Source: Bacteroidales bacterium UBA1184 (GTDB lineage: Bacteria > Bacteroidota > Bacteroidia > Bacteroidales > ML635J-15). Taken from it: a DNA stretch of 64,000 nt. Shown piece after piece: positions 38,440-62,399 of the stretch; the first letter of the stretch is position 1, and the number at the start of each line of letters is the position of its first letter. Made by a program: the position numbers and the translations under genes. The notes under the pieces are model-generated. The model was given only the letters and a program-made list of their open reading frames with translations, did not search any database and was not told where the DNA came from. The DNA lies in NCBI GenBank assembly GCA_002310235.1, contig DBYO01000036.1:54226-118225 (forward strand). The letters are read 5' to 3'.

Positions 38440-38815
38440 AGGCATACCGGCTCGCTGTCAAGCAGGCTCGAAGGCTAACAGACTTGCAGTCTTACGGTCT
38501 AACAGACTTGCTGTCCCACGGGTTTGCTGCCAGACTGCTCGACTAGCCTTTAGCTGGACTTTTTCTGTGTTTCTGTGGCTTCGCCGTTTCTATGTGCTGC
38601 GCACGTTTCTATGTTTCACGTTTGACTTCGTCGAGCTAAAGGTTCGTGAAATTCGTGGTAAAACATTTCGTTTTGGGCCTCGCGAAAAACCCCTGTTGTC
38701 TTATGCGGTGAGCTGAGCCTGTCGAAGCATTGTTCATATTGTCGTTTCTTTCTTTTACGACAGCTTGCAGTGATGAGATCGCGGATAGCTTGATTCTCAT
38801 CGCTTCCGCGATGAC
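38440..38815. repeat. Composite intergenic patchwork of several repeat families
   Basis: cagacttg units, gtttct arrays with mini-hairpins, GxxExxY-type right end (38624-38690), ctgagcctgtcgaag, gagatcgcgg...ccgcgatgac half-REP. Confidence 0.6.
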
Positions 38816-38940
38816 GTCAAAAAAAGGGGCATTGTGAGTTTCAATTATTCTCGCCTTTTCTCCCAATGTTTTGTTTTTCGGTTTGTGGTACGATTTTGTT
38901 AAGAATATTTTTTACATTTGCCCCGATACAATATTTTGAT

Positions 38941-39747
38941 ATGACAAAAGATTATGAATTAGTTGGTGGCAAGTACACCGTGAGGGATGTGGTTCCATGC
39001 TATGATGTGGATTCTACATTGAGAATCAGACCTGTGGCTTTTATGAATATAGCTCAGGAAATGGCAACCCGTGCAGCCGAGCCCTTTGGTTTCGGATATG
39101 ACGATTTGATTAAGAAGGACATGGCCTGGGTGCTTTCTCGCATGCACTTTAGGTTTGTAGATGTACCGCGATGGAAGGAAGAGCTGGTAATTTCGACATG
39201 GCACAAAGGCATTGTAGGTCCGTTTTTCATCCGAGACTTTTCTGTATGTGGTGCCGATGGTTCGACTAAGGTGCTTGGCACTAGTTCGTGGGTTGTGCTC
39301 GATATCAAAAAGCGTTCGATGGTACGTATTGCAGATTTTGTAGATATGATTCCCGAAGATTCGGCTTGCCACGAGGATGCTCTCGAAAAACCAGCAGCAA
39401 AAGTCATGATGCCGCGTACTGCCCAGCCTCGTTTGGCGCAGAGTGTGAAGTTGGGCTATTCCGACATCGACCTAAATGCCCACACCAACAATGCACGCTA
39501 CATTCATTATGCTACCGAATGTTTCACTTGCGACGAGATGTGCGAAATGTCGGTTGCCGATGTGATGATAACCTTCAATCATGAGACATATGCTGGCGAA
39601 ATTCTTGATATTTATATGGTTGACACAGAAACTGATGGCTTGGTTGATGCTTCTGGAAAGCCGATTGTACGCTCGTCTATAATCGAAGGCAAGGTTGGCG
39701 ACCAGCAGGTGTTCTGCGCAAAGTTGATGTTTGTGGAACGTCGCTAA
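38941..39747 (+). CDS. Acyl-[ACP] thioesterase (double hot-dog fold)
   Basis: DVDSTLRIRP, WVLSRMH, DIDLNAHTNNARY; TACATTTG -7 element at 38913-38920 supports the ATG at 38941 over 38866. Confidence 0.88.
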   Translation: MTKDYELVGGKYTVRDVVPCYDVDSTLRIRPVAFMNIAQEMATRAAEPFGFGYDDLIKKDMAWVLSRMHFRFVDVPRWKEELVISTWHKGIVGPFFIRDFSVCGADGSTKVLGTSSWVVLDIKKRSMVRIADFVDMIPEDSACHEDALEKPAAKVMMPRTAQPRLAQSVKLGYSDIDLNAHTNNARYIHYATECFTCDEMCEMSVADVMITFNHETYAGEILDIYMVDTETDGLVDASGKPIVRSSIIEGKVGDQQVFCAKLMFVERR

Positions 39748-39766
39748 CCGCTGAACCTTGATTGAC

Positions 39767-39899
39767 CTATAAACACAAAAAATCCCCCGCATCTTGCGAT
39801 ATGAGGGATTCGGTAGATTAGTTTTATGAGATTATTTTCTGATGTCTAATTCGTTGATGAGGTTCTTAGCTCCGTAGAGTTCATCGATTACCCAAAGTA
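39767..39899. repeat. Direct repeat copy 1: last ~22 codons of dpp7 plus its terminator
   Basis: 39803-39899 is identical (97 bp) to 49905-50001; the adjacent hairpin differs by 2 substitutions and a 2-bp indel. Confidence 0.95.
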
Positions 39900-39907
39900 T
39901 TGCGAGG

Positions 39908-41833
39908 CTACAGCACGATAATTTTCTTTGTTATCACCTTTCCGTCCGTCATCCTTACCCTAACGAAATAGCTACCTGCGCCCATTCCATCCGTGGAAAT
40001 TTCATTAGTGGTGTCGTGCCGTGGCGCGACACTACTAATTTTATATACCACTTCTCCGAGCAGATTGCAGATTTGTATTTCTGCAATATTCTCACCTGCG
40101 ATGTTTATGTATTCTGTGGCAGGATTCGGATATATCGACAGCATAATGTTGTCGTTCTCGTCCACGGCCAGGTCGTGGCAGGGATTTACATAGATGTCCT
40201 TGTATATGGTCTTGATATTGCCGTAATAGTCCGAGAGTGTTATTGCAAGCTGATGCTCGCCTGGGTCTCTTGGCGTGCGGATATTGTAGTGGCGTGCGAT
40301 GATATTCTCTATGGCAGTGTCTTTTATTGTAGCTTCGGTAACTGGTTCTGTATATTCGTACAGCAATTCACCACTCAATACAGTATCTATGCCAATTTCT
40401 TCTGGGACAAATATGTCTGGATAATAGATATTATCAATAACTTGCCCAGTACTGAACTCCATGGTGTACGGTGCCGATGGTCCGCTGATGTTTACAACAC
40501 AATCAATTGTATCCAAATTACAAACGGTATCGGGAATAAATACATCCAAATTAAGTTCTGGCAGTTCAGTGTAACACAATCCATCCAAACCGTTCATATC
40601 GGTCTTTACAAGCCAAGGCTGCTGGAAGTAATCACCAAACTCGGCTGCCGTATAGTAGCTGTCGTATGTATATCCTCCCATAATTAGTCCTCCATCGGGT
40701 GTTGGCTTTATACTATTGAGGTATAATTGCGGACCGTTTTGGCTCCCGTCTGGAGTGTAATATCTGCGGAACATTATGTCGCCGTCTGGAGTAAGTTTAG
40801 TTAGGAATCCTGCCATACCAGTAGAGAGATTTGTGCCTTGACCCGCTATATATATATATCCTTCATTGTCAACATATAGGTCATAGGAACAATCTAAATC
40901 AAATATTCCTGGTCCATTATAATAATCGGAATAGTAATTTTTTATTACTTTTTCCCACAACAGATTGCCATTGTCGTCAATCTTCCTTATGCATGCGGCA
41001 TCACTGGTCCTATCTTCGAAGCGGTCGGCATAGCATACGGGATATATGCCGTTCATGACATAACAGGAGTCTGGGGAGGGGGCGATGAATATTTGAAAAC
41101 CATTTTTCATATCACTTCGTCCATATGTCTTATGCCAGATGGTATTAAGGGAAGTATCCAATTTTTGTATAATCCAATCGTGGTTATTATAATTCCTAAG
41201 TCCAGAGACAATAATATTTCCGTCTTGTCCTCCAATTATCTTCCTTATGCCGATATGATCACGCCTTTCTGCTTCTGCAATAACATTACCATTTGCATCG
41301 TATTTTGTTAGGTATTCACAGAAATTTTCATATTGTCCTCCCATATATATATTGTCTTCGATATAAATGTTACATAACATTAGTGGTCTGTTTGTTGAAT
41401 CAGTATTTAATCTTGTGGCATCAAGAATACGAAGACTGTCATCGAATTCGTATGATTGCAATTTTATGTCGGGACCAATGTTAAATATAAACTTATACGT
41501 ACCAGTCTCTGTAGTATATACAGAACTAGCCGAAACTCCGCCTTCAAAAACATCGTATTGTGCATCACCGATAAACGCGCTATATAATTTATTGCCTTCG
41601 CTATCTGTCTTTACGACCATTGAGCAACGGTTGCCGTTATATAAGGGGTGTCTTGTTCCGATTATAATTATGTAGCCATCATCCAAAGGTGTTATGGAAT
41701 TAAAAACATTCATTTCGCGATATCCAAAATCGCTTACCATATTGAACCTTGTTTGTGCAGGACAATTTATTCGCAAGGAAGTCAATATTAGCAATAGAAT
41801 GATATATATTCCATATAACACCTTTTTCTTCAT
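39908..41833 (-). CDS. T9SS type A cargo protein with N-terminal beta-propeller-like repeats
   Basis: Signal peptide MKKKVL...; repeats 'VKTDSEGN', 'TKYDANGN', 'TKLTPDGD', 'PWLVKTDMNG'; CTD 'IYPNPATEYINI...GAGSYFVRV...KKIIVL'. Confidence 0.8.
   Translation of the reverse strand: MKKKVLYGIYIILLLILTSLRINCPAQTRFNMVSDFGYREMNVFNSITPLDDGYIIIIGTRHPLYNGNRCSMVVKTDSEGNKLYSAFIGDAQYDVFEGGVSASSVYTTETGTYKFIFNIGPDIKLQSYEFDDSLRILDATRLNTDSTNRPLMLCNIYIEDNIYMGGQYENFCEYLTKYDANGNVIAEAERRDHIGIRKIIGGQDGNIIVSGLRNYNNHDWIIQKLDTSLNTIWHKTYGRSDMKNGFQIFIAPSPDSCYVMNGIYPVCYADRFEDRTSDAACIRKIDDNGNLLWEKVIKNYYSDYYNGPGIFDLDCSYDLYVDNEGYIYIAGQGTNLSTGMAGFLTKLTPDGDIMFRRYYTPDGSQNGPQLYLNSIKPTPDGGLIMGGYTYDSYYTAAEFGDYFQQPWLVKTDMNGLDGLCYTELPELNLDVFIPDTVCNLDTIDCVVNISGPSAPYTMEFSTGQVIDNIYYPDIFVPEEIGIDTVLSGELLYEYTEPVTEATIKDTAIENIIARHYNIRTPRDPGEHQLAITLSDYYGNIKTIYKDIYVNPCHDLAVDENDNIMLSIYPNPATEYINIAGENIAEIQICNLLGEVVYKISSVAPRHDTTNEISTDGMGAGSYFVRVRMTDGKVITKKIIVL
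40004..40039. repeat. GTAG-type REP-like palindrome in frame inside the CTD coding region
   Basis: attagtggtgtcgtgcc-gt-ggcgcgacactactaat: 17-bp stem with two G.T pairs; encodes ISSVAPRHDTTN. Confidence 0.65.
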
Positions 41834-41843
41834 AATATAATCA

Positions 41844-44800
41844 TTACAATTTAACAATCTTAGTCTGCATTACATTGTCGTAACAGCTCTTTATCTCAAC
41901 AAGATATGTGCCAGAAGGATATTCACTGACATCAATGCTTATGAGAGTGTCGTAATTATACTTGTCAGTACTTACAAGCCGCGAATTTACATCAAAAATA
42001 TTAATTTGTATTGTTTCACAATCTTCGATATTATTTATTCCATAGTGTTTAAGGAATTCGATTATGTCATCGTCAAGAACATTGCTGGCAAGTTCAATAT
42101 TTATAAAGTCGCTTGTAGGATTTGGATATATTGCATACGGATAAATTTCAGCTGCTGTTTCCGTCTTTGTCGACTTTGTAGTAAATTCTTCCTCGTATAT
42201 GGGTGTATATTCGGGAATTAGAGTATCGAAGGCGTATTCGTACAATGCAGTTGCTATACCAGAATACAGATAATTGTTATCGGCAATATAATTCTCCAGT
42301 TGGGCGCTATGTTCCATAAGCATTTCCTTGCTCATAGTAGTGTCCATAGAGTTTACATACATTTCATATACATCTGCACAGTTGGCAGCCTCTAAGGTTC
42401 CAAGCGAACGGATAGCAGAGATTTGCTGACGAGCATCGTCGTAGTTATCAGCCGATACGAGTATATTGCATGCCATTGCTTTGCTGTCGACATCGGTCTT
42501 TGTGCTGAAGTAATCGAGTATAATAGCATAGTCTGTATCGGAAAGGCTGTCATTCAGAGCCTTGTCGTAAAGCAGGTTTTCGTTCAATGAAATTTCCTGT
42601 TTTATGTCTCCTATAGCCTTTTCGTCGGCAACCCTCTTATTCTCGCCCGTCTGGTAGTAAGAGAGAACCGTTTTTAGTATGTTAGAAATTTCGGCATCCT
42701 GAACATCCTCGTATGTTGCAGCAGGAAGAGGCGAATTTTCGACAAATACAGAAGTTACATATACTGGGTTTTCCTCTACCTTTGCCACAAGTGCATTGCA
42801 TACGGTATCGCTAAGGTACCCGTCCTGAGGTAAGTCTTCTATTGACGGTGCCGTACCCTGCGAAATAGCAGAAACTTTCATAAGGGCATTTGCCGTATTT
42901 CCTCCATCGAGTTTTGTCTCGTACTTGTTTATGGCACTGTCGAGAGTGATGCCGAGCTGCTGGATGTGCGATTTGGTTCTGTCGACACCTGGAAATGGTA
43001 TTGGATTGAATGGATTGGGATTGACTACCGGTCCGTTTCCGTCGTTACATTGGCAATACGATTCGTCATATGGCAGATCGCTATTATTATCCGGACTTAC
43101 TCTTGTGCTATGATGATTGCGTTTTAGCTGGTGAGTAACTTCATAAGTATCATTTTGAGCGTTGTGCTGATAATATTCGTATCCATATACATTGTAACTA
43201 TTGTTTGTGGCTAGATCAAACTGGGTTTGGAACTGGTAATGACTCCTATTAAATGTATTGGGGTTGTCATAGTAGAATGAATTGCCAGTAGGAGCAGTGT
43301 TACTTCCTTGTTCTCGGCGCATATAGCCGTCCTTGACAAATATGTCGCGGGTATTTCTTCTGAAATTATTGCACAATACTTCCAAACCAACACGACCTGT
43401 ATTATTGTTGCCAGATACATAGTTTGAGTTTTTACCAACCACAACAATTGCATTGTATTGAGGTTTTGTTGCTAATGGCAATCCAAGTTGCAATGTTCTC
43501 TCGGCGGGTCGTCCTTCGAAAGTATTATACCTAACTCGGTTGCCAAGGTTGCCCGAATTGTAAACGTACAGGCCGGTAGTAGCATTGGAAATGGTATTTT
43601 GCTCGAAAGTAAATGTGTGGCAGGTGCCGATATATACGCTGTAGTCGACTTCGCGGTCTTCGCGAGCTGTACTCATTATTTCATATTGTTCGCCAGGTTC
43701 TCCGCGTGAGACAATATTGTTGTTCAGCACCTTGCAGCCATCGTTAGCGTTTATGTAGATTGCTCGGTGGTTGCCAGTAAACGAAGAGTTCTCTACTACC
43801 ACGGCATTCGACCTAAAGCCGCTCGCGTGTATTCCGTGGAAAAGTTTCTTGAAACTGCATGACGCAGATACGTCGAAGTGGCCGGAGTTTGCCTGTATGC
43901 CCGAACCGCGGTTGTATCCGGTATTGGTGGCGCCATTTATTGTTGATGGAAATGGCAGGGTGTTCTCGAAAGTACATCCTCTGATGTATATGCCACTAAC
44001 TTTCTCCATAAGTATATGAGCTTTGGGATATATACGGCTGTTGTTCAACTGTCTGGTTGTGGAGAATGTACAGTCGGTTATTGTCGGAGAGTTTGCGTTT
44101 CCCTGTGCCCTGGAATGTTCATTATAGTACAAGTCGTACTGGTTGTTGTTGAAATGGCTTCCGCTGGCTATAATCTTACCGCCGTCTTTCGATTCTACGG
44201 CTTTTATTGCATCTTCGATAGTGGTGCCGTCCTGGCATATCACTTTGCCGTAATTTCTTGCCTCTATAATTGCGATGTTTGGATTTGTAATGTTGATAAT
44301 GCCAGATTTCGTCCTGTCTTCTTCAAAAGCGTTTAGTGATAATGGAGCGCTAATAACCTTAATTCCCTGCCACATCTTGTCGGGGCAGCCTGCCATAATT
44401 GTACAATGGTTGAATGTTACGGTCTTGCCGCCATTTACAGTCCATTGTGTGCTGGCAATGTCGTCGTAGTCGGTGTAGGCACAGTAAATTGTGCAATCGG
44501 TGAATGTAACGTCGTGGTTGAAGGTTAAACCGGAAGGAACAATATATGTTCCGCCGTTGTATGTTGTGCCCAGACTTGAAGTTTCCAATACAGCATAATT
44601 GGGAATCAGGTCAATAGTTCCCAGATTAATATTGTAGGTCTGTCCGTCGGCTGATACAATGTTAAGCCTATTGGCAACGCCTTGTGTTATTTCGACATAC
44701 ATGTCTGTTTGTCCGCTGTTGATGTATGTCTGGGTTGTTGTAAAATCACCACTTGTAAAAGTAGCTACGTAGGGGGCAAGTCCGCCCGAGATGGTAAAAC

Positions 44801-47800
44801 TTATGTGGGATTCGCTTTTTATGCAGGTCTCGGACTCCATCTCTATAGGCGACACGTCAAGTATTCTAAAATCAAGAGGAATGGTGTCGCATGGTGTTAT
44901 AATCATAATAGAGTCGCGAGGGTTAGCTACAAAATTGTACGTATATCCGTTAATTGTATCTTCCACATGTCCTGCGACGGATACTATATAGTTATTTGCA
45001 GGAGGTGTAAAATTCAAGTGGATTGCGACACTGTTTTCCGAAACATAATCGTAGCTTATATTAATGTTGCTAACATCAATAGAAATGGAAGTCAATTGAG
45101 TAGAGCAATAACTAGAATAATATACATCAGCGGAGTATGATCCACGACCGACATTGTTTAGCGTTGTAGTATAAATCGAGTTCGAGCCTTCCTGCAATAC
45201 AAAATATGTTTGTTCTCCATTATTCCAATATGCGTATGGGGTAAATCCGTCGTCAGTATAGGCAAGTTCCATCTCAACGGTTATGGAGGCGGAGTCGTGC
45301 ACATTGCATATATCGGTGTGCGAAATGTTGAAATGCGGGTGATTCAAGCTTTGAATACTAGAATATAAAGTTTCGGCACAAGAACTTGTGTAAAATACGG
45401 TAGCTGAGTAATTGCCAGGTGCACCTGCATCCAATGTTGTTGTGTATCTGGTCGAGTCGGGTGATAATTCAAATTCCGACGTGTAGGTGCCGCCATTCCA
45501 TATAACGTACGGTTCAAAACCTTCTTCTACTCCTGAAAGGATTTCTATGGTTATGGTTCCGTTATTCCTATCGCTGCATGCATAAGTTGTCAAGACTTCG
45601 ATTTCAGGTTCCTGAACTTCAGGCGACATAACTGTAATAGTTATCGGATCCAATGTGTCGCGACAATTTGTTGAATAATTTACAATAGGAATGTAGGTTC
45701 CCGAACCAATATTTACATGAGCACTATTATTGTTTAGCACTGTTGTATATGTAGAAACATCTGTGAGTTCGAAATAGGTTTGTCCTTCCCAAGCGCCTTG
45801 CCATTCTGCTAACATGTTAGAGCCATATTCTATTCTTGGAAGATCCATCTCAACGGCAATAGTACCGCTTCCACCTTCGTGGCATATGTCGGAATGGGAA
45901 ATGTGGAATGTGGGTTTGATGCGTTGGTATGGAAGTTTTATCGGGACTTTTTCGCATAAAACGCCATTGTTATTAATAAAAACAGAGCAATCTCTGACAG
46001 AATCTCTTATTGCGATATAATAAACCCTATCTCCGTAAGGAAGTGTGTTGGTCATATAATATATACACATGTTATTATCATCGCATATATTATCATTACT
46101 AATAACGTAATAATAATTATTATTATATCTAATGTGTGATAATTCACCTCCGCTAACTGTTACAGAAACGTAGCATAGATCATGCTCGCATAATGCAGGA
46201 ATGACAACACCATCAACATTAATGTTTGTATAAGTGCGAGGAATCACTACATCTGTTTCCGCCACTATATTATCTGTACTATCTGTTACAATTATTGTTG
46301 TATTAATATCGTTAAGATGTATTTGTGGAAGCGTATCTACGCCGGGTTCATGACCATATAGGTTTATATAACTATATATAAATTCATTGCTTGTGTTTTC
46401 CATAGGTCTTGATTCACCGTCAATTATAATGTTTGCCGTATAATTAGACATATCTACGTCACATGCATTATTTTTAAGCGTTACCGTTCCTTTATTGCAT
46501 TCTTGTATAGTATTTGCCACAAAACTACAATCGGCCTTGGCTTTTATACTGAGTTCTGCTGTATCGAGGCATCCAAATTTGTCCATTATGCTGCATGAAA
46601 TAGAGAATTCGCAGTCGTAGGCATTCGGTCGGATCATTAAGTCGGAATACCTATTATCTAGATTGTGATAGAACTCACCATTAAAGTTGTTACTTAAATC
46701 CCATGTAGTGCTATTAATTTGATTTCTAGGCTCTAATGAGATGCTATATATGGGGGATGACCCATCAATACAAATACTATCAGGACCTACTATTTGCATT
46801 TGTGCATCGAAAGACACTGTGTCGATCATATAGTGGTCTTCACATGCCGTAGATTGTTTTATAATAAAGGCATTGCGATTATGTAGTTGTGTAATACTTG
46901 ACAAGTCTGGTACAGTATCCGTGTTCGTTGCTATCAGGTTGCCCGATAAGTCGTAGAACGACCATGTAAGCGTTGGCGATAGAGAAAAGTTATGCAAGGT
47001 CAGTGATTCTAAATTACAGTCACTTGAGCATATTGTGAACGAAGCTGCGCAGGTGTCGATATCCTTAGCATCTACCAAATTTGGAAGATTCATCCAGTTC
47101 CGTAATATTGACCCGGGTTCGTAATCTATTAAGTCTTCAACAACATGGCAGTCTTCGTATCCATTGAATGTTGACGCTAGGTTGTCAGGCTCCATAATGA
47201 CGCCAATCCTTCTTGAACTGCCGAAGAAATCTCCAACTCTTGAAATGTATATCCTTCCGTCGGGACCTTCTTGTAAATATAGACCAGTTTTAAAATATTC
47301 TCCACGATTATCCGCAGTAAACACATCGTTGCCACGGATTTCCTGGCAATTACATGAATAATCATTATTTAAGTCGTATTGCGTAATTTTCAGTTTGCCT
47401 GTCCTATGATCTAGGTAAGATAGGTACAAAAATCTTCCATTGGGACTAAACGCCGGCATCGATACTTTAGATGCAAAATTTATTTCACAATCAATAAGAC
47501 TAAAAGTACCATGTGTTGCATTAAAATATGCAAGTCTTAAACAATTATCAGATGCGTATGCAATATATTTGCCATTGGGAGACGCTTTTAGTGTTATTAG
47601 AGGGTGTGTCGCGTATATTTGAACACTTAAATTCAATTCGCTACCAGTTTCATAAACCAGAGATGTCCCGTTATATCTCAATTTTATCGAAACAATATTA
47701 GAGTTTGAGCCTATTGTGCTTATCAGCCAATATCCGCCGGTAGGGCAGGGGACTGCTGTCAACCCATTTAGAAGATAAGGGCCTTCATATATATACGTGC

Positions 47801-49718
47801 TAATATTAAATGATTGACCGTGTTCGATTAGGCGTGAAACGAGTTGGCCATTTTCACAAATCGACACTACTGCGCAATGAGTTTCGTCAAACTTTAGTAC
47901 AATTGTTCCTTTATATGAAATATATTGGTTCAATGAATCGATAAGTTCGTGGTTCCCGTTCCATATCCTGTTGCCGTCGGTGTAGAAAAGAATATTGCCC
48001 GATTCGTCGCATATTCCCGATTCTGATTCACGGGCATCCATTGCTGAAAACTCGCCAGGTTGCGCTATTCCGCTCCTGAAATCAAGAGTAACATAGCTGT
48101 CGAAATACCATTGTGCTTGCGTAGAGTCGATGCCGTTATTGCATTCGATAATCTCGTATTGCCTCGAAATTGAAGTACAGGCATCCACACCTGTAAACGC
48201 TGTAAAATCATAATTGCCAGCTGGCAAAGGCTGAGTTAAATGTACATGTTTTACATAATCGTCTCCCTCTTGTACAAAATCGGAACTATTAAAAGTTAAT
48301 GGTATGAAATCATCTCCTCTTGTTATCTCAAACCTTTGAAGAATACTAATATCTGATGCAGATATTTTTATGTCAAAATCACTATTGCCGCATATATAAT
48401 TTGACCCTGGGGAAACTATTCTTATGTCTAATAAATCGGAAAGAACGGCTACAGAAGCAACCGAATCGCTATAATTAGAGAAAATTTCATCAATATTCTC
48501 CCTCATAAAAGTGGCCTGATCTTTTGTGAATCTGTATCTGCATCCGTCGGGGCTATAACTCATGATATTATCATACGCTATACTATCGAGAGCGGAATAG
48601 TCGCAACCGTAAAACTGTCCAGGATAGTCGGGAGTGTCTTCAATTCCATCATGTATGCCAACTGTATCAAGTTCTACATGTCCATTTATTATTGTAGGAG
48701 CTATTGCGTACTCTATAAATGCATGCAGAAGTCCGAAGTAATGTCCCATTTCGTGAGCGACAGTATATCCCAGCTGGCGGGTAGCCAGATTTGCATTTTC
48801 TCCTATTACGTCTTTTATTATTCCAATTATGGGCAATGACCTTATATTCAGGCACGGGCTTGATGTGATTCCATATACTTTTTCATCAAGGGCACCATAT
48901 ATAATGTCGTCAAATATCCAGACATTTATGTATTTATCGTAAGGGAAATCTGTATAGTAGTCGGTTATAGGTTGATAAGGATCTGTTGCTGGATAATAAA
49001 CGTTGCCAGGATGTCTAACGTTGCTATCGAGGTTAATATTTTCACCATTAAATACATTATATGTAATGCCATAATAATCCTGTTCGCAATAATTTATCGG
49101 ATCGGTCAATGCGGGACGGAATCTTATTTTTGTATCATAAGCAAGTTCTCCTGTTCGTCCTGCAAAAACATCGTTTAAAATACGCATACTTTGATTTATT
49201 TTGGCAGGAGAGATATAATCTGTGGGATCTCCATCAAACCAAGTAGGGACAACAACATGATAAACAATGGGGATGTTAATAATGGGAGCTGAATTTATAT
49301 CAAAATTAGGAATCTCTCTTGGACTACGGGGCAACTGCCCTGCCTTTATCATATCGTGAATCATGTGGTCGGTACCACTGTCTGTAACAAGCATTACATG
49401 TTTGCTTTCTTCGGAAACATGCCACTCTTCATTCTTGTAGTACCGCATTGTAACGTCATATGTTTCAAATACGAGTAGCTGTCCTTCGTATTCCGAAATC
49501 GAGACATACGGAGTCGTAGTCTGGATGGTATCAACTGTTTCATATAAAGTAAATACGAACTCGTACATCTCCGCGCCTTCAATAGAATTGAATCGAATTG
49601 GCTCACCAAACTTGATGTGAATACTTGATTCTGGCAGTGAATCAAAACCTCTTTGTCCGTACGCTAAATGTTGTCCGCACAAAATAACGATAATAAGCAG
49701 TAAGAAAAATTTCCTCAT
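41844..49718 (-). CDS. ~2,620-aa T9SS-secreted M43 (pappalysin/ulilysin-like) zinc metalloprotease with propeller, repeat and beta-helix-like domains
   Basis: IPIVYHVV, YINVWI, HEMGHYFGLLH (48723-48755), DTP, Met-turn NIMSYS.D.C..RFT; CTD YPNPTSD...YPSGTYLVEI...KIVKL. TATCTTTG at 49744-49751 favours the ATG at 49718. Confidence 0.87.
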   Translation of the reverse strand: MRKFFLLLIIVILCGQHLAYGQRGFDSLPESSIHIKFGEPIRFNSIEGAEMYEFVFTLYETVDTIQTTTPYVSISEYEGQLLVFETYDVTMRYYKNEEWHVSEESKHVMLVTDSGTDHMIHDMIKAGQLPRSPREIPNFDINSAPIINIPIVYHVVVPTWFDGDPTDYISPAKINQSMRILNDVFAGRTGELAYDTKIRFRPALTDPINYCEQDYYGITYNVFNGENINLDSNVRHPGNVYYPATDPYQPITDYYTDFPYDKYINVWIFDDIIYGALDEKVYGITSSPCLNIRSLPIIGIIKDVIGENANLATRQLGYTVAHEMGHYFGLLHAFIEYAIAPTIINGHVELDTVGIHDGIEDTPDYPGQFYGCDYSALDSIAYDNIMSYSPDGCRYRFTKDQATFMRENIDEIFSNYSDSVASVAVLSDLLDIRIVSPGSNYICGNSDFDIKISASDISILQRFEITRGDDFIPLTFNSSDFVQEGDDYVKHVHLTQPLPAGNYDFTAFTGVDACTSISRQYEIIECNNGIDSTQAQWYFDSYVTLDFRSGIAQPGEFSAMDARESESGICDESGNILFYTDGNRIWNGNHELIDSLNQYISYKGTIVLKFDETHCAVVSICENGQLVSRLIEHGQSFNISTYIYEGPYLLNGLTAVPCPTGGYWLISTIGSNSNIVSIKLRYNGTSLVYETGSELNLSVQIYATHPLITLKASPNGKYIAYASDNCLRLAYFNATHGTFSLIDCEINFASKVSMPAFSPNGRFLYLSYLDHRTGKLKITQYDLNNDYSCNCQEIRGNDVFTADNRGEYFKTGLYLQEGPDGRIYISRVGDFFGSSRRIGVIMEPDNLASTFNGYEDCHVVEDLIDYEPGSILRNWMNLPNLVDAKDIDTCAASFTICSSDCNLESLTLHNFSLSPTLTWSFYDLSGNLIATNTDTVPDLSSITQLHNRNAFIIKQSTACEDHYMIDTVSFDAQMQIVGPDSICIDGSSPIYSISLEPRNQINSTTWDLSNNFNGEFYHNLDNRYSDLMIRPNAYDCEFSISCSIMDKFGCLDTAELSIKAKADCSFVANTIQECNKGTVTLKNNACDVDMSNYTANIIIDGESRPMENTSNEFIYSYINLYGHEPGVDTLPQIHLNDINTTIIVTDSTDNIVAETDVVIPRTYTNINVDGVVIPALCEHDLCYVSVTVSGGELSHIRYNNNYYYVISNDNICDDNNMCIYYMTNTLPYGDRVYYIAIRDSVRDCSVFINNNGVLCEKVPIKLPYQRIKPTFHISHSDICHEGGSGTIAVEMDLPRIEYGSNMLAEWQGAWEGQTYFELTDVSTYTTVLNNNSAHVNIGSGTYIPIVNYSTNCRDTLDPITITVMSPEVQEPEIEVLTTYACSDRNNGTITIEILSGVEEGFEPYVIWNGGTYTSEFELSPDSTRYTTTLDAGAPGNYSATVFYTSSCAETLYSSIQSLNHPHFNISHTDICNVHDSASITVEMELAYTDDGFTPYAYWNNGEQTYFVLQEGSNSIYTTTLNNVGRGSYSADVYYSSYCSTQLTSISIDVSNINISYDYVSENSVAIHLNFTPPANNYIVSVAGHVEDTINGYTYNFVANPRDSIMIITPCDTIPLDFRILDVSPIEMESETCIKSESHISFTISGGLAPYVATFTSGDFTTTQTYINSGQTDMYVEITQGVANRLNIVSADGQTYNINLGTIDLIPNYAVLETSSLGTTYNGGTYIVPSGLTFNHDVTFTDCTIYCAYTDYDDIASTQWTVNGGKTVTFNHCTIMAGCPDKMWQGIKVISAPLSLNAFEEDRTKSGIINITNPNIAIIEARNYGKVICQDGTTIEDAIKAVESKDGGKIIASGSHFNNNQYDLYYNEHSRAQGNANSPTITDCTFSTTRQLNNSRIYPKAHILMEKVSGIYIRGCTFENTLPFPSTINGATNTGYNRGSGIQANSGHFDVSASCSFKKLFHGIHASGFRSNAVVVENSSFTGNHRAIYINANDGCKVLNNNIVSRGEPGEQYEIMSTAREDREVDYSVYIGTCHTFTFEQNTISNATTGLYVYNSGNLGNRVRYNTFEGRPAERTLQLGLPLATKPQYNAIVVVGKNSNYVSGNNNTGRVGLEVLCNNFRRNTRDIFVKDGYMRREQGSNTAPTGNSFYYDNPNTFNRSHYQFQTQFDLATNNSYNVYGYEYYQHNAQNDTYEVTHQLKRNHHSTRVSPDNNSDLPYDESYCQCNDGNGPVVNPNPFNPIPFPGVDRTKSHIQQLGITLDSAINKYETKLDGGNTANALMKVSAISQGTAPSIEDLPQDGYLSDTVCNALVAKVEENPVYVTSVFVENSPLPAATYEDVQDAEISNILKTVLSYYQTGENKRVADEKAIGDIKQEISLNENLLYDKALNDSLSDTDYAIILDYFSTKTDVDSKAMACNILVSADNYDDARQQISAIRSLGTLEAANCADVYEMYVNSMDTTMSKEMLMEHSAQLENYIADNNYLYSGIATALYEYAFDTLIPEYTPIYEEEFTTKSTKTETAAEIYPYAIYPNPTSDFINIELASNVLDDDIIEFLKHYGINNIEDCETIQINIFDVNSRLVSTDKYNYDTLISIDVSEYPSGTYLVEIKSCYDNVMQTKIVKL

Positions 49719-49784
49719 AACATTGAACTTTAAATAAACATCCCAAAGATAAAACAAATTCGTTTTAAACTGCAAATGATTTAT

Positions 49785-49878
49785 TAAATTTTTGAATTTT
49801 TAAATCAGCGAAGCTAACCTTTAGCTCGGCGTAAGCAATTCTTGAACCCTTGAACCTTTAAACTTTTTAACTATAAAC
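49785..49878. repeat. Octamer-array/mini-hairpin repeat at the island boundary
   Basis: agcgaagct, ctttagctcggcgtaagca (49819-49837), ttgaaccc-ttgaacct-ttaaactt-tttaact. Confidence 0.7.
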
Positions 49879-50001
49879 AAAAAATCCCCCGCATCTTACG
49901 ATACGAGGGATTCGGTAGATTAGTTTTATGAGATTATTTTCTGATGTCTAATTCGTTGATGAGGTTCTTAGCTCCGTAGAGTTCATCGATTACCCAAAGT
50001 A
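49871..50001. repeat. Direct repeat copy 2 (functional dpp7 3' end plus terminator)
   Basis: See copy 1; minus-strand hairpin aatccctcgtatc-GTAA-gatgcgggggatt followed by a T-run. Confidence 0.95.
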
Positions 50002-52135
50002 CATAGCGAGCATCAACATTGATCGTCCTCTGCATTTCGGGGCTGAAGATGAGGTTCGAGCAGAGCCATTCCCAGTTGCCGTCGAAAGCAAGACCAATGA
50101 GTTCGCCGTTGCCGTTGATGATTGGTGAACCTGAGTTACCACCAGTAATGTCGTTGTCGCTGAGGAAGCAAACTGGAAGATTACCTGTTTCGTCGGCATA
50201 GCGGCCATACTGCTTCTTGTTGTAGAGTTCCTTCAGTTCCTTCGGAACAACAAATTCTGGATCGTTCGGATTTTCCTTTTCGATGATACCGTCGATGTAA
50301 GTCAAATATTTGTACTTAACACCATCACGTGGCAAGTAGCTCTGTACTGTTCCGTAAGTGAGACGGAGTGTCGAGTTTGCATCCGGATAGAAAACTCTGT
50401 CCTTTTCAAATTCGCGAAGTCCCTGAGTGTAAACTCTTTCGAGAGTTTCAATCTTATTCATTGGGCCTACAAATGCTCCTTGCAACGGCATGATTCCGCT
50501 GTAAACGCTCTTTGCAAAACCGAACATCGGGTCGGCATCGAGAGCCTTCTTGCTTGGCTTGTCGAGGAATGCGTTGAGACGGTCCTTGTCGGTGAAGATA
50601 GACTTTGAGTAAACAGCATTTATGAATTTAGAAATCGATTCAGCTTCGGTTTTGCCCTTGTAGTTCTTGAACAGATAATCGCTGAATGCAGCTACTCTTC
50701 TTTCTGCAGGGATGGTGTTTACATAGTGGTTGAGCATTCTTTCGAACGACTTTTTGTCGGTGTTTACAAAGTAGTTCTTGAACATGTCGTCAACGCCACC
50801 CTTGAAATCGGTGCAGAAATCCTTAATCTGCTCTGCGTTACCCTTTTCGTCTTCGAGAAGTCTCGACAGCATGAACATCTGCAATGAGTTCATTGTCATA
50901 TCGCTACCCTGGCTGAGAAGCAATGAGATAAGAAGCATGTCCTGAGTTGCCTGTCCGTACGATTCGTAAGTGCTCTTAAGTTCGTCGAGTACGTTTCCGT
51001 AGAGTTTCTTACGGCTGTCGTTTTCGTTAGCCCATTTCTGGAATGCAGCTTCTTCCTCTTCTTTGAGCTGTATTGCGTTGGTGGTCTTCAAGGTTTCTAT
51101 TTCACCGCCCCAGAGTTTGTATCCGTTTGCGAGCGATGCGTAAGTGTCAGCCATAGCAAGACGTATATTGTCGTCAACATCCATGTCTTCCTTCATTGCA
51201 CCAAGCTTAACACCGAGAGCGTCAACAGCACTTGGATTGTACCAGTCGCGTTTGTATTTCATACCGTATGAGCAGAGGAAACGTTCGGTGCTTCCAGGAT
51301 AACCCATAATCATTGTGAAGTCGCCTTCCTTTACACCCTTTATTGAAACAGGGAGGTAGTGGAGAGGTTTGTAAGGAACATTGTTCTTGTCGTATTCTTT
51401 GGTTGGCTTACCGTCTGCCGACATATATACGCGGAATACCGAGAAGTCGCCAGTGTGACGAGGCCACATCCAGTTGTCGGTATCGCCGCCGAACTTACCT
51501 ATCGATGAAGGAGGTGCACCTACAAAACGAACATCGCCGAAAATTTCATATACGAAAAGGTAGTATTCGCCACCCTTGTACATTTCTTCAACCGATGCTT
51601 CGTATTCGTTGTCCTTTGTTGCTTCAGCAACGATTTCCTTCATAGCTTCGCCGACTTTCTTCGAACGTTCTGCTTCTGGAGTCTCGTTGGTTACGCCTTT
51701 CAGTACGCGTTCGGTAACATCTTCGATGCGAACAACGCGGCTTACTCTAAGCCATGGGCATGAAAGTTCTTCTTCCTTGCTCTTTGCCCAGTAACCGTTG
51801 TCGAGGTAGTTGTGCTCGGTGGTGCTGAGCTTTGTTATCGATTCGTATCCGCAGTGGTGGTTGGTGAAAAGCAAACCTTCCTTGCTTACTATTTCGCCGG
51901 TGCAGAAACCACCGCCATCTGCCGATTGTAATTGGAATATAGCGTCCTTGAGGCTCGAATGGTTGATGCTGTAGATTTCTTCTGCGGTAAGTTTGCAGCC
52001 GAGTTTCTGCATCTGTCCATAGTTCAACTGTGCAATCTTGTTAGGCAACCACATGCCCTCGTCGGGTTCTGGTGTTGCGTTCAGCCATATTGCGCCTGCA
52101 AATAGGGCTACTAATAATGTACTGATTCTCTTCAT
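49934..52135 (-). CDS. dpp7: S46 family dipeptidyl peptidase, DPP7-type
   Basis: DEGMWLP, TNHHCG, GGDTDNWMWPRHTGDF, DITGGNSGSP; FDGNWE (Gly, not the Arg of DPP11); -7 element TATCTTTG at 52170-52177 (minus). Confidence 0.92.
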   Translation of the reverse strand: MKRISTLLVALFAGAIWLNATPEPDEGMWLPNKIAQLNYGQMQKLGCKLTAEEIYSINHSSLKDAIFQLQSADGGGFCTGEIVSKEGLLFTNHHCGYESITKLSTTEHNYLDNGYWAKSKEEELSCPWLRVSRVVRIEDVTERVLKGVTNETPEAERSKKVGEAMKEIVAEATKDNEYEASVEEMYKGGEYYLFVYEIFGDVRFVGAPPSSIGKFGGDTDNWMWPRHTGDFSVFRVYMSADGKPTKEYDKNNVPYKPLHYLPVSIKGVKEGDFTMIMGYPGSTERFLCSYGMKYKRDWYNPSAVDALGVKLGAMKEDMDVDDNIRLAMADTYASLANGYKLWGGEIETLKTTNAIQLKEEEEAAFQKWANENDSRKKLYGNVLDELKSTYESYGQATQDMLLISLLLSQGSDMTMNSLQMFMLSRLLEDEKGNAEQIKDFCTDFKGGVDDMFKNYFVNTDKKSFERMLNHYVNTIPAERRVAAFSDYLFKNYKGKTEAESISKFINAVYSKSIFTDKDRLNAFLDKPSKKALDADPMFGFAKSVYSGIMPLQGAFVGPMNKIETLERVYTQGLREFEKDRVFYPDANSTLRLTYGTVQSYLPRDGVKYKYLTYIDGIIEKENPNDPEFVVPKELKELYNKKQYGRYADETGNLPVCFLSDNDITGGNSGSPIINGNGELIGLAFDGNWEWLCSNLIFSPEMQRTINVDARYVLWVIDELYGAKNLINELDIRK

Positions 52136-52211
52136 AGTTTATGCTTTTATTTATTTGTTATTTTTTTTGCAAAGATATTTCCTGAAGTCAGAATGTTGAA
52201 TTAATAAAAAA

Positions 52212-54200
52212 TTAAAGTTTTATAAAATTAGTTTTAAAGGTTGATTCCTCCGATGTTATAGTTATTGTATAATGTCCAGGAGCAAGCGACGATACATCAA
52301 TGCTCGAAACTTCTCTTACAGAACGACTTACAAACATTACTTTGCCGTTTTCGCTTATGATTTCAATGTCGTAGGTGCCATTCTCGGGAAGGTTGATGTT
52401 AAGCATGCTGGAAGTAGGATTCGGGTATATGCTTATGAAATCGTTATCGAATTCGTTGACTCCTTGGTCTGTTGTTATTGTCATGTAGTTGTTTACTCGC
52501 TTGAAGTCGCTACAGATAGAATCTTCCGAATATGCAGTAAGTTTTACTGGGAAGGTACCTGCATTGTAGTATGTTACCTGCGGATTCTGTTCGCTTGATG
52601 TTGCTGGTATTGCACCTTCGAATTCCCAGCTCCAGTAGAACGAATTTTCGCTAAGGTCGTTGAACTGAACTATCTGGCCTCTGGCTGCTGTGGTATTTGC
52701 AGCTTCGAAATTTGCAATTACAAGACCTACCACCTTTATATATTCGTCCTTTGTGATTCTGTCGCTATCGACTTCATTGTATGCAGTGAGTTTTACCGAG
52801 TACATGCCTTCGGTGTTGTATGTAACCACTGGGTTTGGATCGGTCGAAAACTCAGGAGTTCCACCGAAGAACTGCCACTGGATGCTTGTTGTGTTTGTAG
52901 CTGCGGAGTGGAAAGTTACGGTTTGACCTTCGCATATTGCGGTAATGTCGGCGGTGAAGTCAGCGGTAACTGTTCCGTGAACAATAATCATTTCGTTTAT
53001 TGTTTTGGTAATTTCGCAGTTGTCGTTCGATACGGTGAGGGTTACGCTATATGTTCCTGGCGTGTTGTACCTTATCGTCGGATTCTGCTCGTTCGATGTC
53101 GATGGCGTTCCGCCCGGGAACGACCACGACCATGTTGTCGGATCTTGTGTCGAGAGGTCGGTGAAGTGTACCTGTTCTCCTTCGATGATTTCTGTAGCGT
53201 CGGCTGTGAAGTCGGGGACAATCGGTGCCGGCTCTTCGGGAAAGGAGGGCATTTCGTCGTCGTTTACAGTAATTGGATTATCAATTGTGAGCTGACGTAG
53301 TTTTGCTTTCAGCGTTATTCCGCTTCTAGTGTATTTTTCGTTTGTGATCCAGAGTCTGCTGCTGTCGCGGAATGCGATTCCTTCGGTTTGATTATATCTG
53401 ATGATGTCGGTCAGACCTACCGACGACAATTCGGTAGTCTCTACTGTTCCCGAGAAGAATTTGTTGCCTTCGAAGTTACGCAGTAGGGTGAGGTATGGCC
53501 TCGATTCGGGGATTAATCCCGACACATCGTAGGTATAACCGAGGAGTGACACTGTGTTTGTGCGGTAGTCGTAGTCGGCAGCGCATACAAGATAGTCGAG
53601 ATGTAATGTGTCGATAGGCGTAATTGTGTGGAAATAATTCGCCTTGTTTGGTATAGCGTACAGATACACATCGTGGTCAACCCAGTTCTTAGAGAAGAGG
53701 AACAAGGTGTCGTCCTTGGCAATGAAGGCTTCGCAGTCGAAGCGAGTGTTTGTCACCGAGTAATCGGGTTCCGGATAGTCGGGGTTGCCATAGGTGAAAT
53801 TAATAATACGCGGTTCGATAGTGCTGAGTTCCGAATTTTCAAGATCTTCGATCTTTATTCGGATGATACGCGGATTAGTATTCATTGCACCAAAGTCGCC
53901 TATGTAAATGTTGGTTGCATCCTTGGCAAGGTCTTCCCAGTCGATGTTTGTTACGCCCGAGATAGTCTTGCGTTCCAATATTTCACCTGTAGCGGTATCG
54001 ATGCTGTAGAGGACAGGTTCGCCTTCCGAGTCGTTGTGCGTCCATAGCTTTCCATTGTGGAAGATAAGACCTGATGTTTCTTCTATTTCGTTGGGCAGTT
54101 CGCCTACCAGTATTGTTGCTGAACTTACCTGTGCAAACGATGCGCCTATGCTTACCAATAGAATTGCTGCTGCTGCGATCAGTTTCTTTATTGCTGTCAT
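52212..54200 (-). CDS. T9SS cargo: N-terminal beta-propeller-like domain, 3 PKD domains, type A CTD
   Basis: ETSG..HNGKLWTHNDS, DWED, YIGDFG; PKD 'WSWSFPGGTP..NP...YNTPGTYSVTL'; CTD IYPNPTS...FIKL. Confidence 0.85.
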   Translation of the reverse strand: MTAIKKLIAAAAILLVSIGASFAQVSSATILVGELPNEIEETSGLIFHNGKLWTHNDSEGEPVLYSIDTATGEILERKTISGVTNIDWEDLAKDATNIYIGDFGAMNTNPRIIRIKIEDLENSELSTIEPRIINFTYGNPDYPEPDYSVTNTRFDCEAFIAKDDTLFLFSKNWVDHDVYLYAIPNKANYFHTITPIDTLHLDYLVCAADYDYRTNTVSLLGYTYDVSGLIPESRPYLTLLRNFEGNKFFSGTVETTELSSVGLTDIIRYNQTEGIAFRDSSRLWITNEKYTRSGITLKAKLRQLTIDNPITVNDDEMPSFPEEPAPIVPDFTADATEIIEGEQVHFTDLSTQDPTTWSWSFPGGTPSTSNEQNPTIRYNTPGTYSVTLTVSNDNCEITKTINEMIIVHGTVTADFTADITAICEGQTVTFHSAATNTTSIQWQFFGGTPEFSTDPNPVVTYNTEGMYSVKLTAYNEVDSDRITKDEYIKVVGLVIANFEAANTTAARGQIVQFNDLSENSFYWSWEFEGAIPATSSEQNPQVTYYNAGTFPVKLTAYSEDSICSDFKRVNNYMTITTDQGVNEFDNDFISIYPNPTSSMLNINLPENGTYDIEIISENGKVMFVSRSVREVSSIDVSSLAPGHYTITITSEESTFKTNFIKL

Positions 54201-62311: not shown

Positions 62312-62399
62312 TGCTTACGCGAGCTAAAGGTTGGTTACGCCGAGCTAACGGTTCGTGGTTGTGTTATTCCTTCTAGTTTTGAGCATAGCGAAAAAACTT
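62312..62399. repeat. Partial third repeat: two inverted cores plus right end
   Basis: tgcttacgcgagctaaag, ggttacgccgagctaacg, ttcgtggt...ttttgagcatagcgaaaaaactt. Confidence 0.7.

Follow-up and report, generated by a model that had tools for sequence, protein, structure and literature searches.

A duplicated dpp7 3′ end around a two-gene T9SS cassette in an uncultured rumen Bacteroidales: probable trace of an ancient recombination in a slot of variable gene content

Campbell-type, RecA-dependent integration of circular DNA, for example of suicide plasmids, places direct repeats around the insert and leaves the target intact; the CIMEs of streptococcal ICEs and the IMEX elements, which XerC/XerD recombinases mobilise at dif sites, carry no integrase and are mobilised in trans. 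Homology-facilitated illegitimate recombination (HFIR) leaves orphaned 3′ regions in the T6SS effector-immunity arrays of Vibrio cholerae and in Rhs/CDI loci (Kirchberger et al. 2017, PMC5361080). In Neisseria, minimal mobile elements lie between conserved flanking genes (Saunders & Snyder 2002 and Snyder et al. 2007, both cited in PMC3787668). Here we compare with these systems a locus in a 64,000-nucleotide stretch of Bacteroidales bacterium UBA1184 (contig DBYO01000036.1; "the window"), in which the 3′ end of an S46 dipeptidyl-peptidase gene (dpp7) is found on both sides of a two-gene island (Table 1). An earlier note on the window had proposed that a recombinase acting in trans moves the island; the insertion/duplication polymorphism is genuine, but that mode of mobilisation is not supported. 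We conclude that the duplication probably records one ancient recombination in a slot of variable content rather than an island that moves by itself.

The direct repeat is 130 nt long, with copies at 39770-39899 and 49872-50001 (offset 10,102 bp, 97% identity) that are the only two in the whole genome, and 39803-39899 equals 49905-50001 over a 97-nt core without any mismatch; the 130-bp duplication with identical core and diverged hairpin described earlier was thus recovered, together with the reported spacing of 8 nt between the stop of the last island gene and the orphan copy. In BLAST comparisons, gapped and degenerate similarity reaches ~157 nt (39746-39899 against 49845-50001, 91%) and runs up to the stop codon of the thioesterase gene. 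The 130 nt consist of the final 22 codons of the S46 peptidase gene and its intrinsic terminator, a 13-bp perfect stem plus U-run in the right copy (-20.3 kcal/mol, z = -6.2) and a hairpin with one mismatch in the left copy of this strain (-14.9 kcal/mol); the left copies in the strains of runs X7, X8, and X13 have the right-copy hairpin letters. The copies differ at four places (two substitutions, one 2-nt indel beside a T-run, and one further change), all in the terminator hairpin part, which makes up the last 33 of the 130 nt (p = 0.004 under uniformity). The orphan copy is now a bidirectional terminator between the small island gene and the thioesterase gene. Judged by its letters, the 8-nt filler next to it is presumed to be an illegitimate joint; it equals the dpp7 sequence directly upstream of the repeat (gctcgcta) at 6/8 bases, with 2 nt missing, a resemblance that could be imperfect microhomology or chance.

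Table 1. Features of the dpp7-thioesterase slot and its borders, in window coordinates
Feature	Position	Strand	Remarks
PD40 beta-propeller repeat protein, 745 aa	36110..38347	-	Pfam PF07676; conserved flanking gene
Acyl-ACP thioesterase, 293 aa, left slot border	38866..39747	+	PF01643 + PF20791
Left (orphan) copy	39746..39899	-	68 nt of dpp7 end (untranslated here), 3′ UTR, terminator hairpin, degenerate distal part
Identical core	39803..39899	-	separate Logan unitig in X9
8-nt filler (cctcgcaa, minus strand)	39900..39907	-	from small gene stop codon to orphan copy
Island gene 2 (small), 641 aa from ATG 41833	39908..41833	-	predicted signal peptide, SBBP/beta-propeller-like repeats, sorting domain
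Diverged-allele segment (small gene and C-terminal third of big gene)	39923..44000	-	Logan X7, X8, X10, X13
Island gene 1 (big), 2624 aa from ATG 49718	41844..49718	-	predicted signal peptide, M43/metzincin-like domain, sorting domain
Putative Bacteroidota -7 promoter box TATCTTTG	49744..49751	-	26 nt upstream of big gene ATG
REP-like hairpin element	49805..49836	.	core AACCTTTAGCTC at 49816-49827
Right copy	49845..50001	-	functional dpp7 3′ end (49934-50001), terminator hairpin, distal part merging into REP-like composite
Intact S46 (Dpp7-like) dipeptidyl-peptidase, 733 aa, right slot border	49934..52135	-	PF10459
T9SS cargo protein with PKD domain, 662 aa; conserved gene on the upstream side of dpp7	52212..54200	-	PF00801 + PF18962

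Each of the two island genes encodes a T9SS C-terminal sorting domain. The big protein matches PF05572 (the M43/metzincin-like domain, residues about 280-430), PF18962, and weakly TIGR03952; the small protein matches PF18962, TIGR04183, and weakly SBBP/delta-60; and PF18962 lies at the extreme C-terminus of both (E = 2e-11 and 2e-12). With a predicted signal peptide (a hydrophobic N-terminus judged by eye) and a Por_Secre_tail/TIGR04183 domain in each, both are predicted T9SS type A cargo, in a genome with about 93 candidate T9SS cargo genes. ATG 49718 (big) and ATG 41833 (small) are probably the true starts, rather than the TTG starts of the open reading frame list; the TATCTTTG box fits the Bacteroidota consensus TAnnTTTG and is a putative promoter element as read from the letters. 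The promoter, 5′ UTR, and N-terminus of the big gene also occur in paralogous cassettes of relatives, and the exact small protein is present on independent Logan contigs. A profile search of the island's genes found no integrase, relaxase, or transposase domain, in agreement with the earlier description of two T9SS substrates with none of the three aboard.

The S46 peptidase that borders the island on the right is full length (PF10459 2-697/698, E = 2e-230) and strongly expressed in rumen metatranscriptomes; because it scores 672 bits against the nearest NCBIfam model, the Dpp7 equivalog, whose cut-off is 1200, "dpp7" should be taken as a family-level name only. The genome has three S46 paralogs (n=3), dpp7 orthologs in sister species share 91-97% aa, and the PKD-domain gene is syntenic in relatives. 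The thioesterase gene is convergent on island and dpp7, and the PD40 ortholog adjoins it in four relatives (G002, G008, G011, and G019; 75-88% aa).

Since the source is a metagenome-assembled genome, the duplication or the island linkage might be a chimera of co-assembled strains, a reading to which we give almost no credence. The thioesterase-orphan-small gene junction is also present in an independent k127 assembly (L016) and in Logan contigs of X7, X8, X10, and X13, four more runs that come from as many other studies; those of X7, X10, and X13 cross the left junction and that of X8 reaches the edge of the repeat, so that misassembly, named in advance as the finding that would overturn the island, is contradicted. 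Moreover, the copies differ at fixed positions; the 97-nt core unitig in X9, from a fifth study, has a depth of 18.2 versus 8.8 and 10.7 in its flanks, i.e. twofold; and the whole island forms one 10,065-nt Logan contig, core to core. In favor of a chimera, the only contigs besides that of the genome itself to cross the core from the dpp7 side, L018 and L021, both lead to the thioesterase gene. The runs that contain the locus are represented by Logan contigs built with k=31; these end within the 97-nt core and leave the junctions unphased, and no PacBio or Nanopore run with the locus was found. An apparent X1 joint from 39857 to 50069 was set aside as cross-species noise, being out of register with the repeat and having 27 nt on one side.

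The same contigs date the junction. The segment from 39923 to 44000 is 85-92% identical in X7, X8, X10, and X13, with flanks at >95-99%, and the entire island of the X9 strain is about 99% identical. Strains of several studies share an identical left junction beside a diverged cargo allele, from which we conclude that the junction had a single origin and is old and widespread in the species.

In this genus of uncultured rumen Bacteroidales, the region between dpp7 and the thioesterase gene is a slot whose gene content varies. The thioesterase gene is directly convergent on dpp7 in four sister species (G003, G002, G021, and Red_deer_4_mag_224; gaps 118-489 nt), and other species have different cargo at the same place, T9SS substrates included, so both kinds of relative that the earlier note had proposed to look for, with an empty site or with other cargo, do exist. 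Specifically, i) the slot of RUG12182 holds 5.7 kb of other cargo, including a 786-aa T9SS protein and a Fib_succ_major protein; ii) that of G011 has different cargo; iii) in G008 a homolog of the small gene (86% aa) adjoins the thioesterase gene and the orphan copy is absent; and iv) the slot is rearranged in further relatives. The 130-nt duplication was found in none of the other slot occupants (RUG12182, G008, G011, G010, G012, and G019), nor were there flanking repeats at nine paralogous cassette loci of relatives. The closest cargo homologs are 86% identical for the small gene (G008) and 73% for the C-terminal half of the big gene (G002), and a donor search in the genus yielded no genome with the right-copy distal sequence beside dpp7.

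Differing content between conserved flanking genes, with no mobility genes, is the hallmark of a minimal mobile element, and the slot shows it. The likeness includes differing whole-gene cassettes between the same conserved flanking pair in close relatives and exchange presumed to proceed by homologous recombination in the flanks. Minimal mobile elements lack flanking target duplications; the occupant here has one, which implies that one or more of the steps departed from a clean double crossover.

Could the repeat instead be the attL and attR of an integrase-less, CIME/IMEX-type island, inserted site-specifically at the dpp7 3′ end by a recombinase encoded elsewhere? Several features fit: the direct repeat restores its target gene, empty sites were found, no integrase is aboard, and the genome has XerC/XerD-type recombinases. 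We nevertheless regard this as very unlikely. A genome-wide PF00589 search of the 91%-complete assembly returned only XerD and an XerC-like protein, and phage-type, conjugative-transposon-type, and integron integrases were all missing from the assembled genome; no recombinase or helper is thus in evidence, although metagenome-assembled genomes often lose mobile elements, which makes a missing integrase weak evidence, and 91% completeness leaves this absence short of proof. Outside its two copies the core is absent from the genome, so that no helper element offers a matching att site, and the insertion site is not a dif site. At 130-157 nt the repeat is long, its distal end is degenerate and ill-defined, and it lacks a sharp core; it is missing at the other slot cargo and at the nine paralogous cassettes, i.e. 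no att core is reused by independent insertions; and it shares no common core or motif with the genome's other repeat-bounded stretches. The likeness to CIMEs and IMEX elements consists of direct repeats around an element with no recombinase aboard, and the circle driven by a trans-acting recombinase that had been proposed for this island finds only XerD and the XerC-like protein in the genome and no integrase in the island. An integron origin, considered for AAC...GTT cores, was rejected as well: there is no integron integrase, and XerD and the XerC-like protein score below IntI cut-offs.

The genome contains a second orphan fragment. At locus C12, 164 nt from the 5′ part of a transglutaminase-like gene are duplicated, the orphan adjoins a T9SS BspA-LRR gene in a variable slot, and the three genes between the C12 copies are conserved residents in G002, G011, and G003 (87-99% aa), save that one of the trio, AAA384, was not seen in the 3.5-kb locus of G003. 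Because the C12 copies enclose residents, not cargo, orphan fragments mark recombination joints rather than mobile units.

A REP-like element (49805-49836) separates the right repeat copy from the promoter that belongs to the cassette; its mini-hairpin CTTTAGCTC, which had been pointed out beside the right copy, is real (49816-49827) and belongs to a dispersed family. The 12-mer GAGCTAAAGGTT has 66 copies in the genome versus 0.4 expected, a 150-fold excess, and its element loci are intergenic in 56/58 cases; the element is multicopy in sister species and also occurs in the empty-site spacer of G021. The C12 locus has an element pair at the inner side of its orphan copy, and the same elements bound the variable slot in G002; hairpins mark, in this genome, the inner limit of each of the two orphan-fragment junction regions and, in sister species, the borders of the same variable slots. 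These placements and the 150-fold, almost always intergenic over-representation are what would be expected if the hairpins initiated or targeted recombination and guided cassette capture, with the duplication as a by-product, an idea that we consider most improbable. The version in which they are signals for a trans-acting enzyme that exchanges cassettes (T9SS cargo, defence genes), the dpp7-tail duplication being its footprint, deserves equally little weight. A T9SS gene adjoins just 12/58 element loci, compared with 10.8% of all intergenic gaps (about two-fold, p = 0.02), and most elements adjoin ordinary genes; insertion at an element would not alone account for a second dpp7 tail; the link seen at two loci is a post hoc observation; and the only Y1 transposase of the genome, of the IS200/IS605 family, is flanked by unrelated hairpins. 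Repeat-guided capture as first suggested is further weakened by the lack of the repeat in the other slot occupants and at the nine paralogous loci, and by the old, single junction. The CTTTAGCTC/GAGCTAAAGGTT elements are intergenic repeats of a generic kind. Two ideas on the family were set aside: REP-transposases (RAYT), as the lone Y1 transposase is flanked by hairpins of another type (ACCCC...GGGGT) and does not reach the REP-transposase cut-off; and DNA uptake sequences, as 66 copies of the 12-mer fall far short of known uptake-sequence densities. One observation counts against a purely generic mechanism, namely that a REP-like element abuts one repeat copy on its inner side both here and at C12.

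We therefore return to a scar left by ordinary recombination. In this species the slot holds one member of a paralogous two-gene T9SS module (giant M43-like plus beta-propeller protein), probably acquired or enclosed in one event that would need no dedicated recombinase: a homologous exchange in dpp7 or in its tail and terminator, combined with one illegitimate joint at which the DNA 8 nt beyond the stop of the small gene was fused to dpp7 position -68. Three routes may be envisaged: a) a linear fragment [dpp7...tail-terminator-REP-big-small] could have entered an empty site by homology-facilitated illegitimate recombination, displacing the tail of the resident dpp7, which became the downstream orphan; b) an empty-site-type fragment [dpp7 tail-terminator-thioesterase] could have been joined behind a resident cassette; or c) a circle with one tail copy could have integrated by a RecA-dependent single crossover. 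The three give an identical product and are indistinguishable from sequence. The structure of the locus, the empty and alternatively filled slots, the missing integrase, and how old and widespread the junction is are observations; because no donor arrangement was found, the route is what we infer. The event would be older than the strain diversity sampled in several rumen studies, and the cargo part from 39923 to about 44000 would have been exchanged later by ordinary homologous recombination. The clustering of the inter-copy differences requires an extra assumption for this reading, either gene conversion of the core or allele differences between donor and recipient.

As in HFIR-type displacement, an intact gene is followed by imported DNA and then by an orphan copy of its 3′ end. 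The locus further resembles the T6SS/Rhs orphans in that the module is anchored by homology in the conserved upstream gene, that the resident 3′ end was moved downstream with no integrase involved, and that secretion-system cargo is concerned at a locus that varies among close relatives; it differs in that the anchor gene dpp7 is not itself cargo or toxin, that the orphan has just 68 nt of coding sequence plus a terminator, and that there is a single displacement, with no array, for a secretion system that is T9SS, in a lineage not known to be naturally transformable. Equally, as in Campbell-type integration, direct copies of a segment of RecA length enclose the complete insert and leave the target gene intact; a perfect core of 97 nt suffices for RecA, and the repeat far exceeds typical att cores. 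Unlike the Campbell-type case, no replicon or circle was detected, k=31 contigs being unable to show a circle junction, and a circle would have needed a prior illegitimate joint to gain the dpp7 tail. The single crossover of a circle postulated earlier is hence compatible with the structure and possible as an origin, but it would be homology-driven and is not evidence for a dedicated system.

If such a crossover were reversible, RecA could still be excising a 10.1-kb circle with one repeat copy and re-integrating it into empty-site strains, which would require no dedicated enzyme and would make the element effectively mobile within the species. This we think unlikely, although beyond the Campbell-type structure it can draw on two JGI contigs with an empty site and flanks 99-100% identical to this strain. 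In L018 (5,953 nt), PKD-dpp7 is joined straight to the thioesterase gene, with flanks 100% identical and a left-type hairpin, the exact product of a crossover within the 97-nt core, and L021 has the same empty join in a slightly different strain. If real, they point to gain or loss in recent times in addition to an old scar; however, they could be assembly artefacts. The sequences of two other JGI contigs, L019 and L020, end 80 nt inside the core, suggesting that the assembler used a k near 81, below the core's 97 nt; and dpp7 RNA in the rumen is about ten-fold above that of the island, so that tip-clipping in a low-k or transcript assembly could yield L018. The depths of thioesterase and island contigs in the source sample are equal (44.7 versus 44.2 in X2; 51.1 versus 54.4 in X3), which means that empty chromosomes are rare there, and the junction is old and shared by strains with a diverged cargo allele. 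An exact 42-mer scan for the core, intended to sort junction contexts and to reveal a circle junction, gave 0 matches in the JGI metagenome contigs scanned, a set that may lack records close to the window, and the JGI samples behind L018-L021 are named in no paper that we found.

We wish to stress that a target-restoring repeat alone does not identify a mobile element, and that a new mechanism would be at hand only if the REP-like elements or the empty-site contigs prove meaningful. The locus is a dated, well-bounded case of T9SS cargo gain or swap in uncultured rumen Bacteroidales, useful as a marker of strain history, and it illustrates cargo turnover in a slot of variable content, flanked by conserved genes, through ordinary recombination with an orphan gene fragment left behind.

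Three further observations bear indirectly on homologous exchange mediated by the flanks. Sliding-window identity along dpp7 against nine relatives is mosaic and has no clear breakpoint from which a donor could be named; the thioesterase genes of the genus fall into two deeply diverged allele classes (85-89% versus 61-69% aa) that are discordant; and the cargo segment from 39923 to ~44000 shows an internal allele swap among strains.

The duplication of about 130 bp that an earlier note placed at the 3′ end of the dpp7 peptidase gene proves genuine. Its two copies, 130 nt each and 10,102 bp apart, share an identical core of 97 nt, with all four differences confined to the terminator hairpin, and gapped similarity extends to about 157 nt at 91%; there is no third copy in the genome, a 2.8 Mb MAG (53 contigs, 91% complete) from a bovine rumen metagenome in which the window is C13:54226-118225, and whose relatives, without exception, are MAGs of uncultured Bacteroidales from ruminants. 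The right copy, at the functional dpp7 3′ end, folds with a perfect 13-bp terminator stem (-20.3 kcal/mol), and the orphan copy beside the thioesterase gene folds slightly less well in this strain (-14.9 kcal/mol). Misassembly is rejected on three grounds: i) junction contigs recur independently, both in a k127 assembly (L016) that covers the thioesterase gene, orphan copy, and small gene in one span, and in Logan contigs of four other studies (X7, X8, X10, and X13) that have the same left junction, three of them (X7, X10, and X13) continuing into the small gene; ii) in run X9, from a fifth study, the 97-nt core forms its own unitig at twice the depth of its flanks; and iii) the entire island, core to core, is one 10,065-nt contig in another run. 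We conclude that a T9SS cargo pair was gained here, in a real and well-bounded event at a variable slot, and that the orphan 3′ fragment is most likely the recombination scar of this gain. The locus adds an example of known processes and does not represent a novel type of mobile element.

Layout of the dpp7-thioesterase locus, with copies of the dispersed 12-mer in the window
Feature	Position	Strand	Context
PKD-domain T9SS protein	54200-52212	minus	
S46/Dpp7-like peptidase (dpp7)	52135-49934	minus	full-length
Right repeat copy		minus (reading)	directly after dpp7
REP-like hairpin element	49836-49805		between right repeat copy and promoter region
Promoter region			between REP-like element and big gene
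Big gene, 2624 aa	49718-41844	minus	M43-like metzincin domain and T9SS sorting domain
Small gene, 641 aa	41833-39908	minus	beta-propeller-like T9SS protein; 10-nt gap after big gene
Filler, 8 nt			between small gene and orphan repeat copy
Orphan repeat copy	39899-39770		degenerate to 39746; reaches thioesterase stop codon
Acyl-ACP thioesterase gene	38866-39747	plus	convergent
12-mer GAGCTAAAGGTT examples	38622-38644; 49816-49827; 62319-62330		

PD40, thioesterase, dpp7, and PKD genes are syntenic in the genus sub-clade whose dpp7 is 91-97% identical. Relatives include the empty sites that the earlier note proposed to look for, where thioesterase is directly convergent on dpp7 (G003, spacer 133 nt; G002, 268 nt; Red_deer_4_mag_224, 118 nt; and G021, 489 nt, taken up by small repeats), as well as a site with different cargo, RUG12182, where 5.7 kb comprise a 786-aa T9SS protein, a Fib_succ_major protein, and DUF805, with no flanking repeat around them. 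Another relative (G011) has a different signal-peptide gene after dpp7; in G008 a small-gene homolog (86% aa) adjoins the thioesterase gene across a 90-nt spacer, with no orphan dpp7 copy at that locus; and in G010, G012, G019, and RGIG9689 the slot is differently occupied or rearranged. Because content varies in this way between fixed flanking genes, the slot acts like a minimal mobile element site of Neisseria, which is defined by just such an arrangement (PMC3787668). The cargo belongs to a paralogous family of two-gene modules, big protein then small, with members at several further loci in relatives; flanking direct repeats were seen at none of nine such paralogous loci.

Two JGI contigs could place an empty site within the same species: L018 fuses PKD-dpp7 to the thioesterase gene with flanks 100% identical to the MAG and a left-type hairpin, and L021 repeats this join in a strain that is nearly identical. 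If genuine, they would reflect recent loss or gain of the island. We treat them with caution, however, because island and thioesterase contigs are equal in depth in the source sample; because sister contigs L019 and L020 end 80 nt into the core, suggesting a k of about 81, shorter than the 97-nt core; and because dpp7 exceeds the island about ten-fold in rumen metatranscriptomes, where tip-clipping would then join dpp7 to the thioesterase branch.

The complete island is present in the X9 strain, about 1-2% diverged. Strains in X7, X8, X10, and X13 match the MAG at >95% over two-thirds of the big gene, from its 5′ end, and keep the identical left junction, and carry from 39923 to about 44000 an allele 85-92% diverged. 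The left junction thus had a single origin older than the sampled strain diversity, and the cargo has been partly swapped since by normal homologous recombination. Right-copy letters occur in the thioesterase-adjacent hairpin of X7, X8, and X13, so that the hairpin differences between the MAG's copies are ordinary polymorphism; copy-to-copy divergence (about 2-3%) is comparable in size to that between strains.

The earlier note envisaged an integrase-less island, with secreted-protein cassettes captured or exchanged by a recombinase acting in trans; the insertion and its duplication stand, but the trans-acting recombinase is not supported, for lack of a matching helper or any reuse of the repeat. 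The island has no recombinase. Two tyrosine recombinases are encoded in the assembled genome, one XerD above cut-off and the other XerC-like, both far under integron-integrase cut-offs, and the sole IS200/IS605 Y1 transposase (C13:5143-5634) is flanked by unrelated hairpins of its own. Since the repeat core is absent elsewhere, the assembly contains no helper element that would carry a matching site, nor is the repeat shared by other occupants of the slot. Together these observations argue against att-type site-specific recombination, with the caveat that MAGs often lose mobile elements. The Y1 transposase gene (153 aa), outside the window, is flanked within C13:4930-5700 by direct repeats of 110 nt as well as by these ACCCC...GGGGT hairpins. 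This layout resembles that of a REP-associated transposase, although the gene product scores below the REP-transposase model cut-off.

Whichever route was taken, one homologous exchange would have combined with a single illegitimate joint, linking the end of the small gene to dpp7 position -68. The cassette and a donor's dpp7 tail may have been imported into an empty site, an empty-site-type thioesterase fragment may have been imported behind a resident cassette, or a circle may have integrated by a RecA-dependent single crossover. Import of a thioesterase fragment would fit both G008 and the discordant thioesterase allele classes. No donor was found among the relatives searched, and dpp7 shows an identity mosaic with no clean breakpoint. 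We consider this homology-driven, recombinase-independent family of explanations the probable one.

The thioesterase gene itself (orthologs L035-L045) falls into two deeply diverged allele classes in the genus: aa identity to this copy is 85-89% in G003 and G010, versus 61-69% in the otherwise closest species. Because the classes are discordant with the relationships of the neighboring PD40 and dpp7 genes, they suggest allelic replacement by recombination.

Self-comparison of the genome yielded three more repeat pairs, 2.9-4.5 kb apart, of which two, on contigs C12 and C50, were examined. At the C12 repeat (164 nt, 91% identical; C12:61613-61776 and 66148-66311, or L022:2614-2777 and 7149-7312), a stretch of 5′ coding sequence from a transglutaminase-like gene is present twice. 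The three genes between the copies (unknown, zinc-ribbon, and AAA_14/DUF4143) were rejected as an island, being conserved residents in sister species (G002 and G011, with at least two of the three in G003; 87-99% aa). The C12 orphan fragment, a 101-aa ORF adjoining a T9SS BspA-LRR gene, was found in this genome alone; G002 and G011 have restriction-modification-like genes in its slot. In this genome, orphan gene fragments therefore mark recombination joints that border variable slots, and the intervening DNA need not be mobile. Orphan gene fragments are likewise the recombination traces in Rhs orphan arrays and Vibrio T6SS effector-immunity arrays, where the pattern is ascribed to homology-facilitated illegitimate recombination (PMC5361080). 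The C50 pair (C50:46445-46572 and 50568-50695; L024) is a 128-nt direct repeat, 94% identical and rich in ATTTGTAAT-type palindromes, enclosing 4.1 kb with genes for a WYL-WCX regulator, a REase-ARP PD-(D/E)XK nuclease, and a HAD_SAK_2 protein, which looks like a defence islet; a T9SS protein is adjacent.

Among the CTTTAGCTC/GAGCTAAAGGTT elements, the 12-mer GAGCTAAAGGTT occurs in 66 copies (0.4 expected) in varied hairpin contexts, is intergenic at 56 of 58 loci, and is abundant in sister species with dpp7 91-97% identical but no copy was found in the half of the genus that is more distant. One GAGCTAAAGGTT copy falls precisely between the right repeat copy and the promoter of the cassette itself, and an element pair sits at the corresponding place in the C12 junction and also delimits the C12 slot in G002; this placement at both junctions, noticed post hoc, is suggestive. 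Genome-wide, elements lie beside T9SS genes at 12 of 58 loci versus 10.8% of all intergenic gaps (p = 0.02), only a two-fold excess, and element-guided capture survives as a reading of very low probability.

No link was found between the dpp7 island and the GxxExxY cassette, where a gene for a 125-aa GxxExxY protein (61700-62077, minus; TIGR04256, E = 1e-39) is enclosed by two blocks (about 200 nt) of ATTCGTG/CACGAAT-type palindromic repeats in which the CTTTAG(C/A)TC motif occurs. Contigs of dpp7 that match the strain at 100% (window 50024-52528) attain a word depth of 25-88 in four rumen metatranscriptome runs, and the island and thioesterase gene 0-6. The T9SS cargo repertoire of the genome is very large, with 93 ORFs carrying a C-terminal sorting domain in 2.8 Mb (iterated HMM, local sorting domains).
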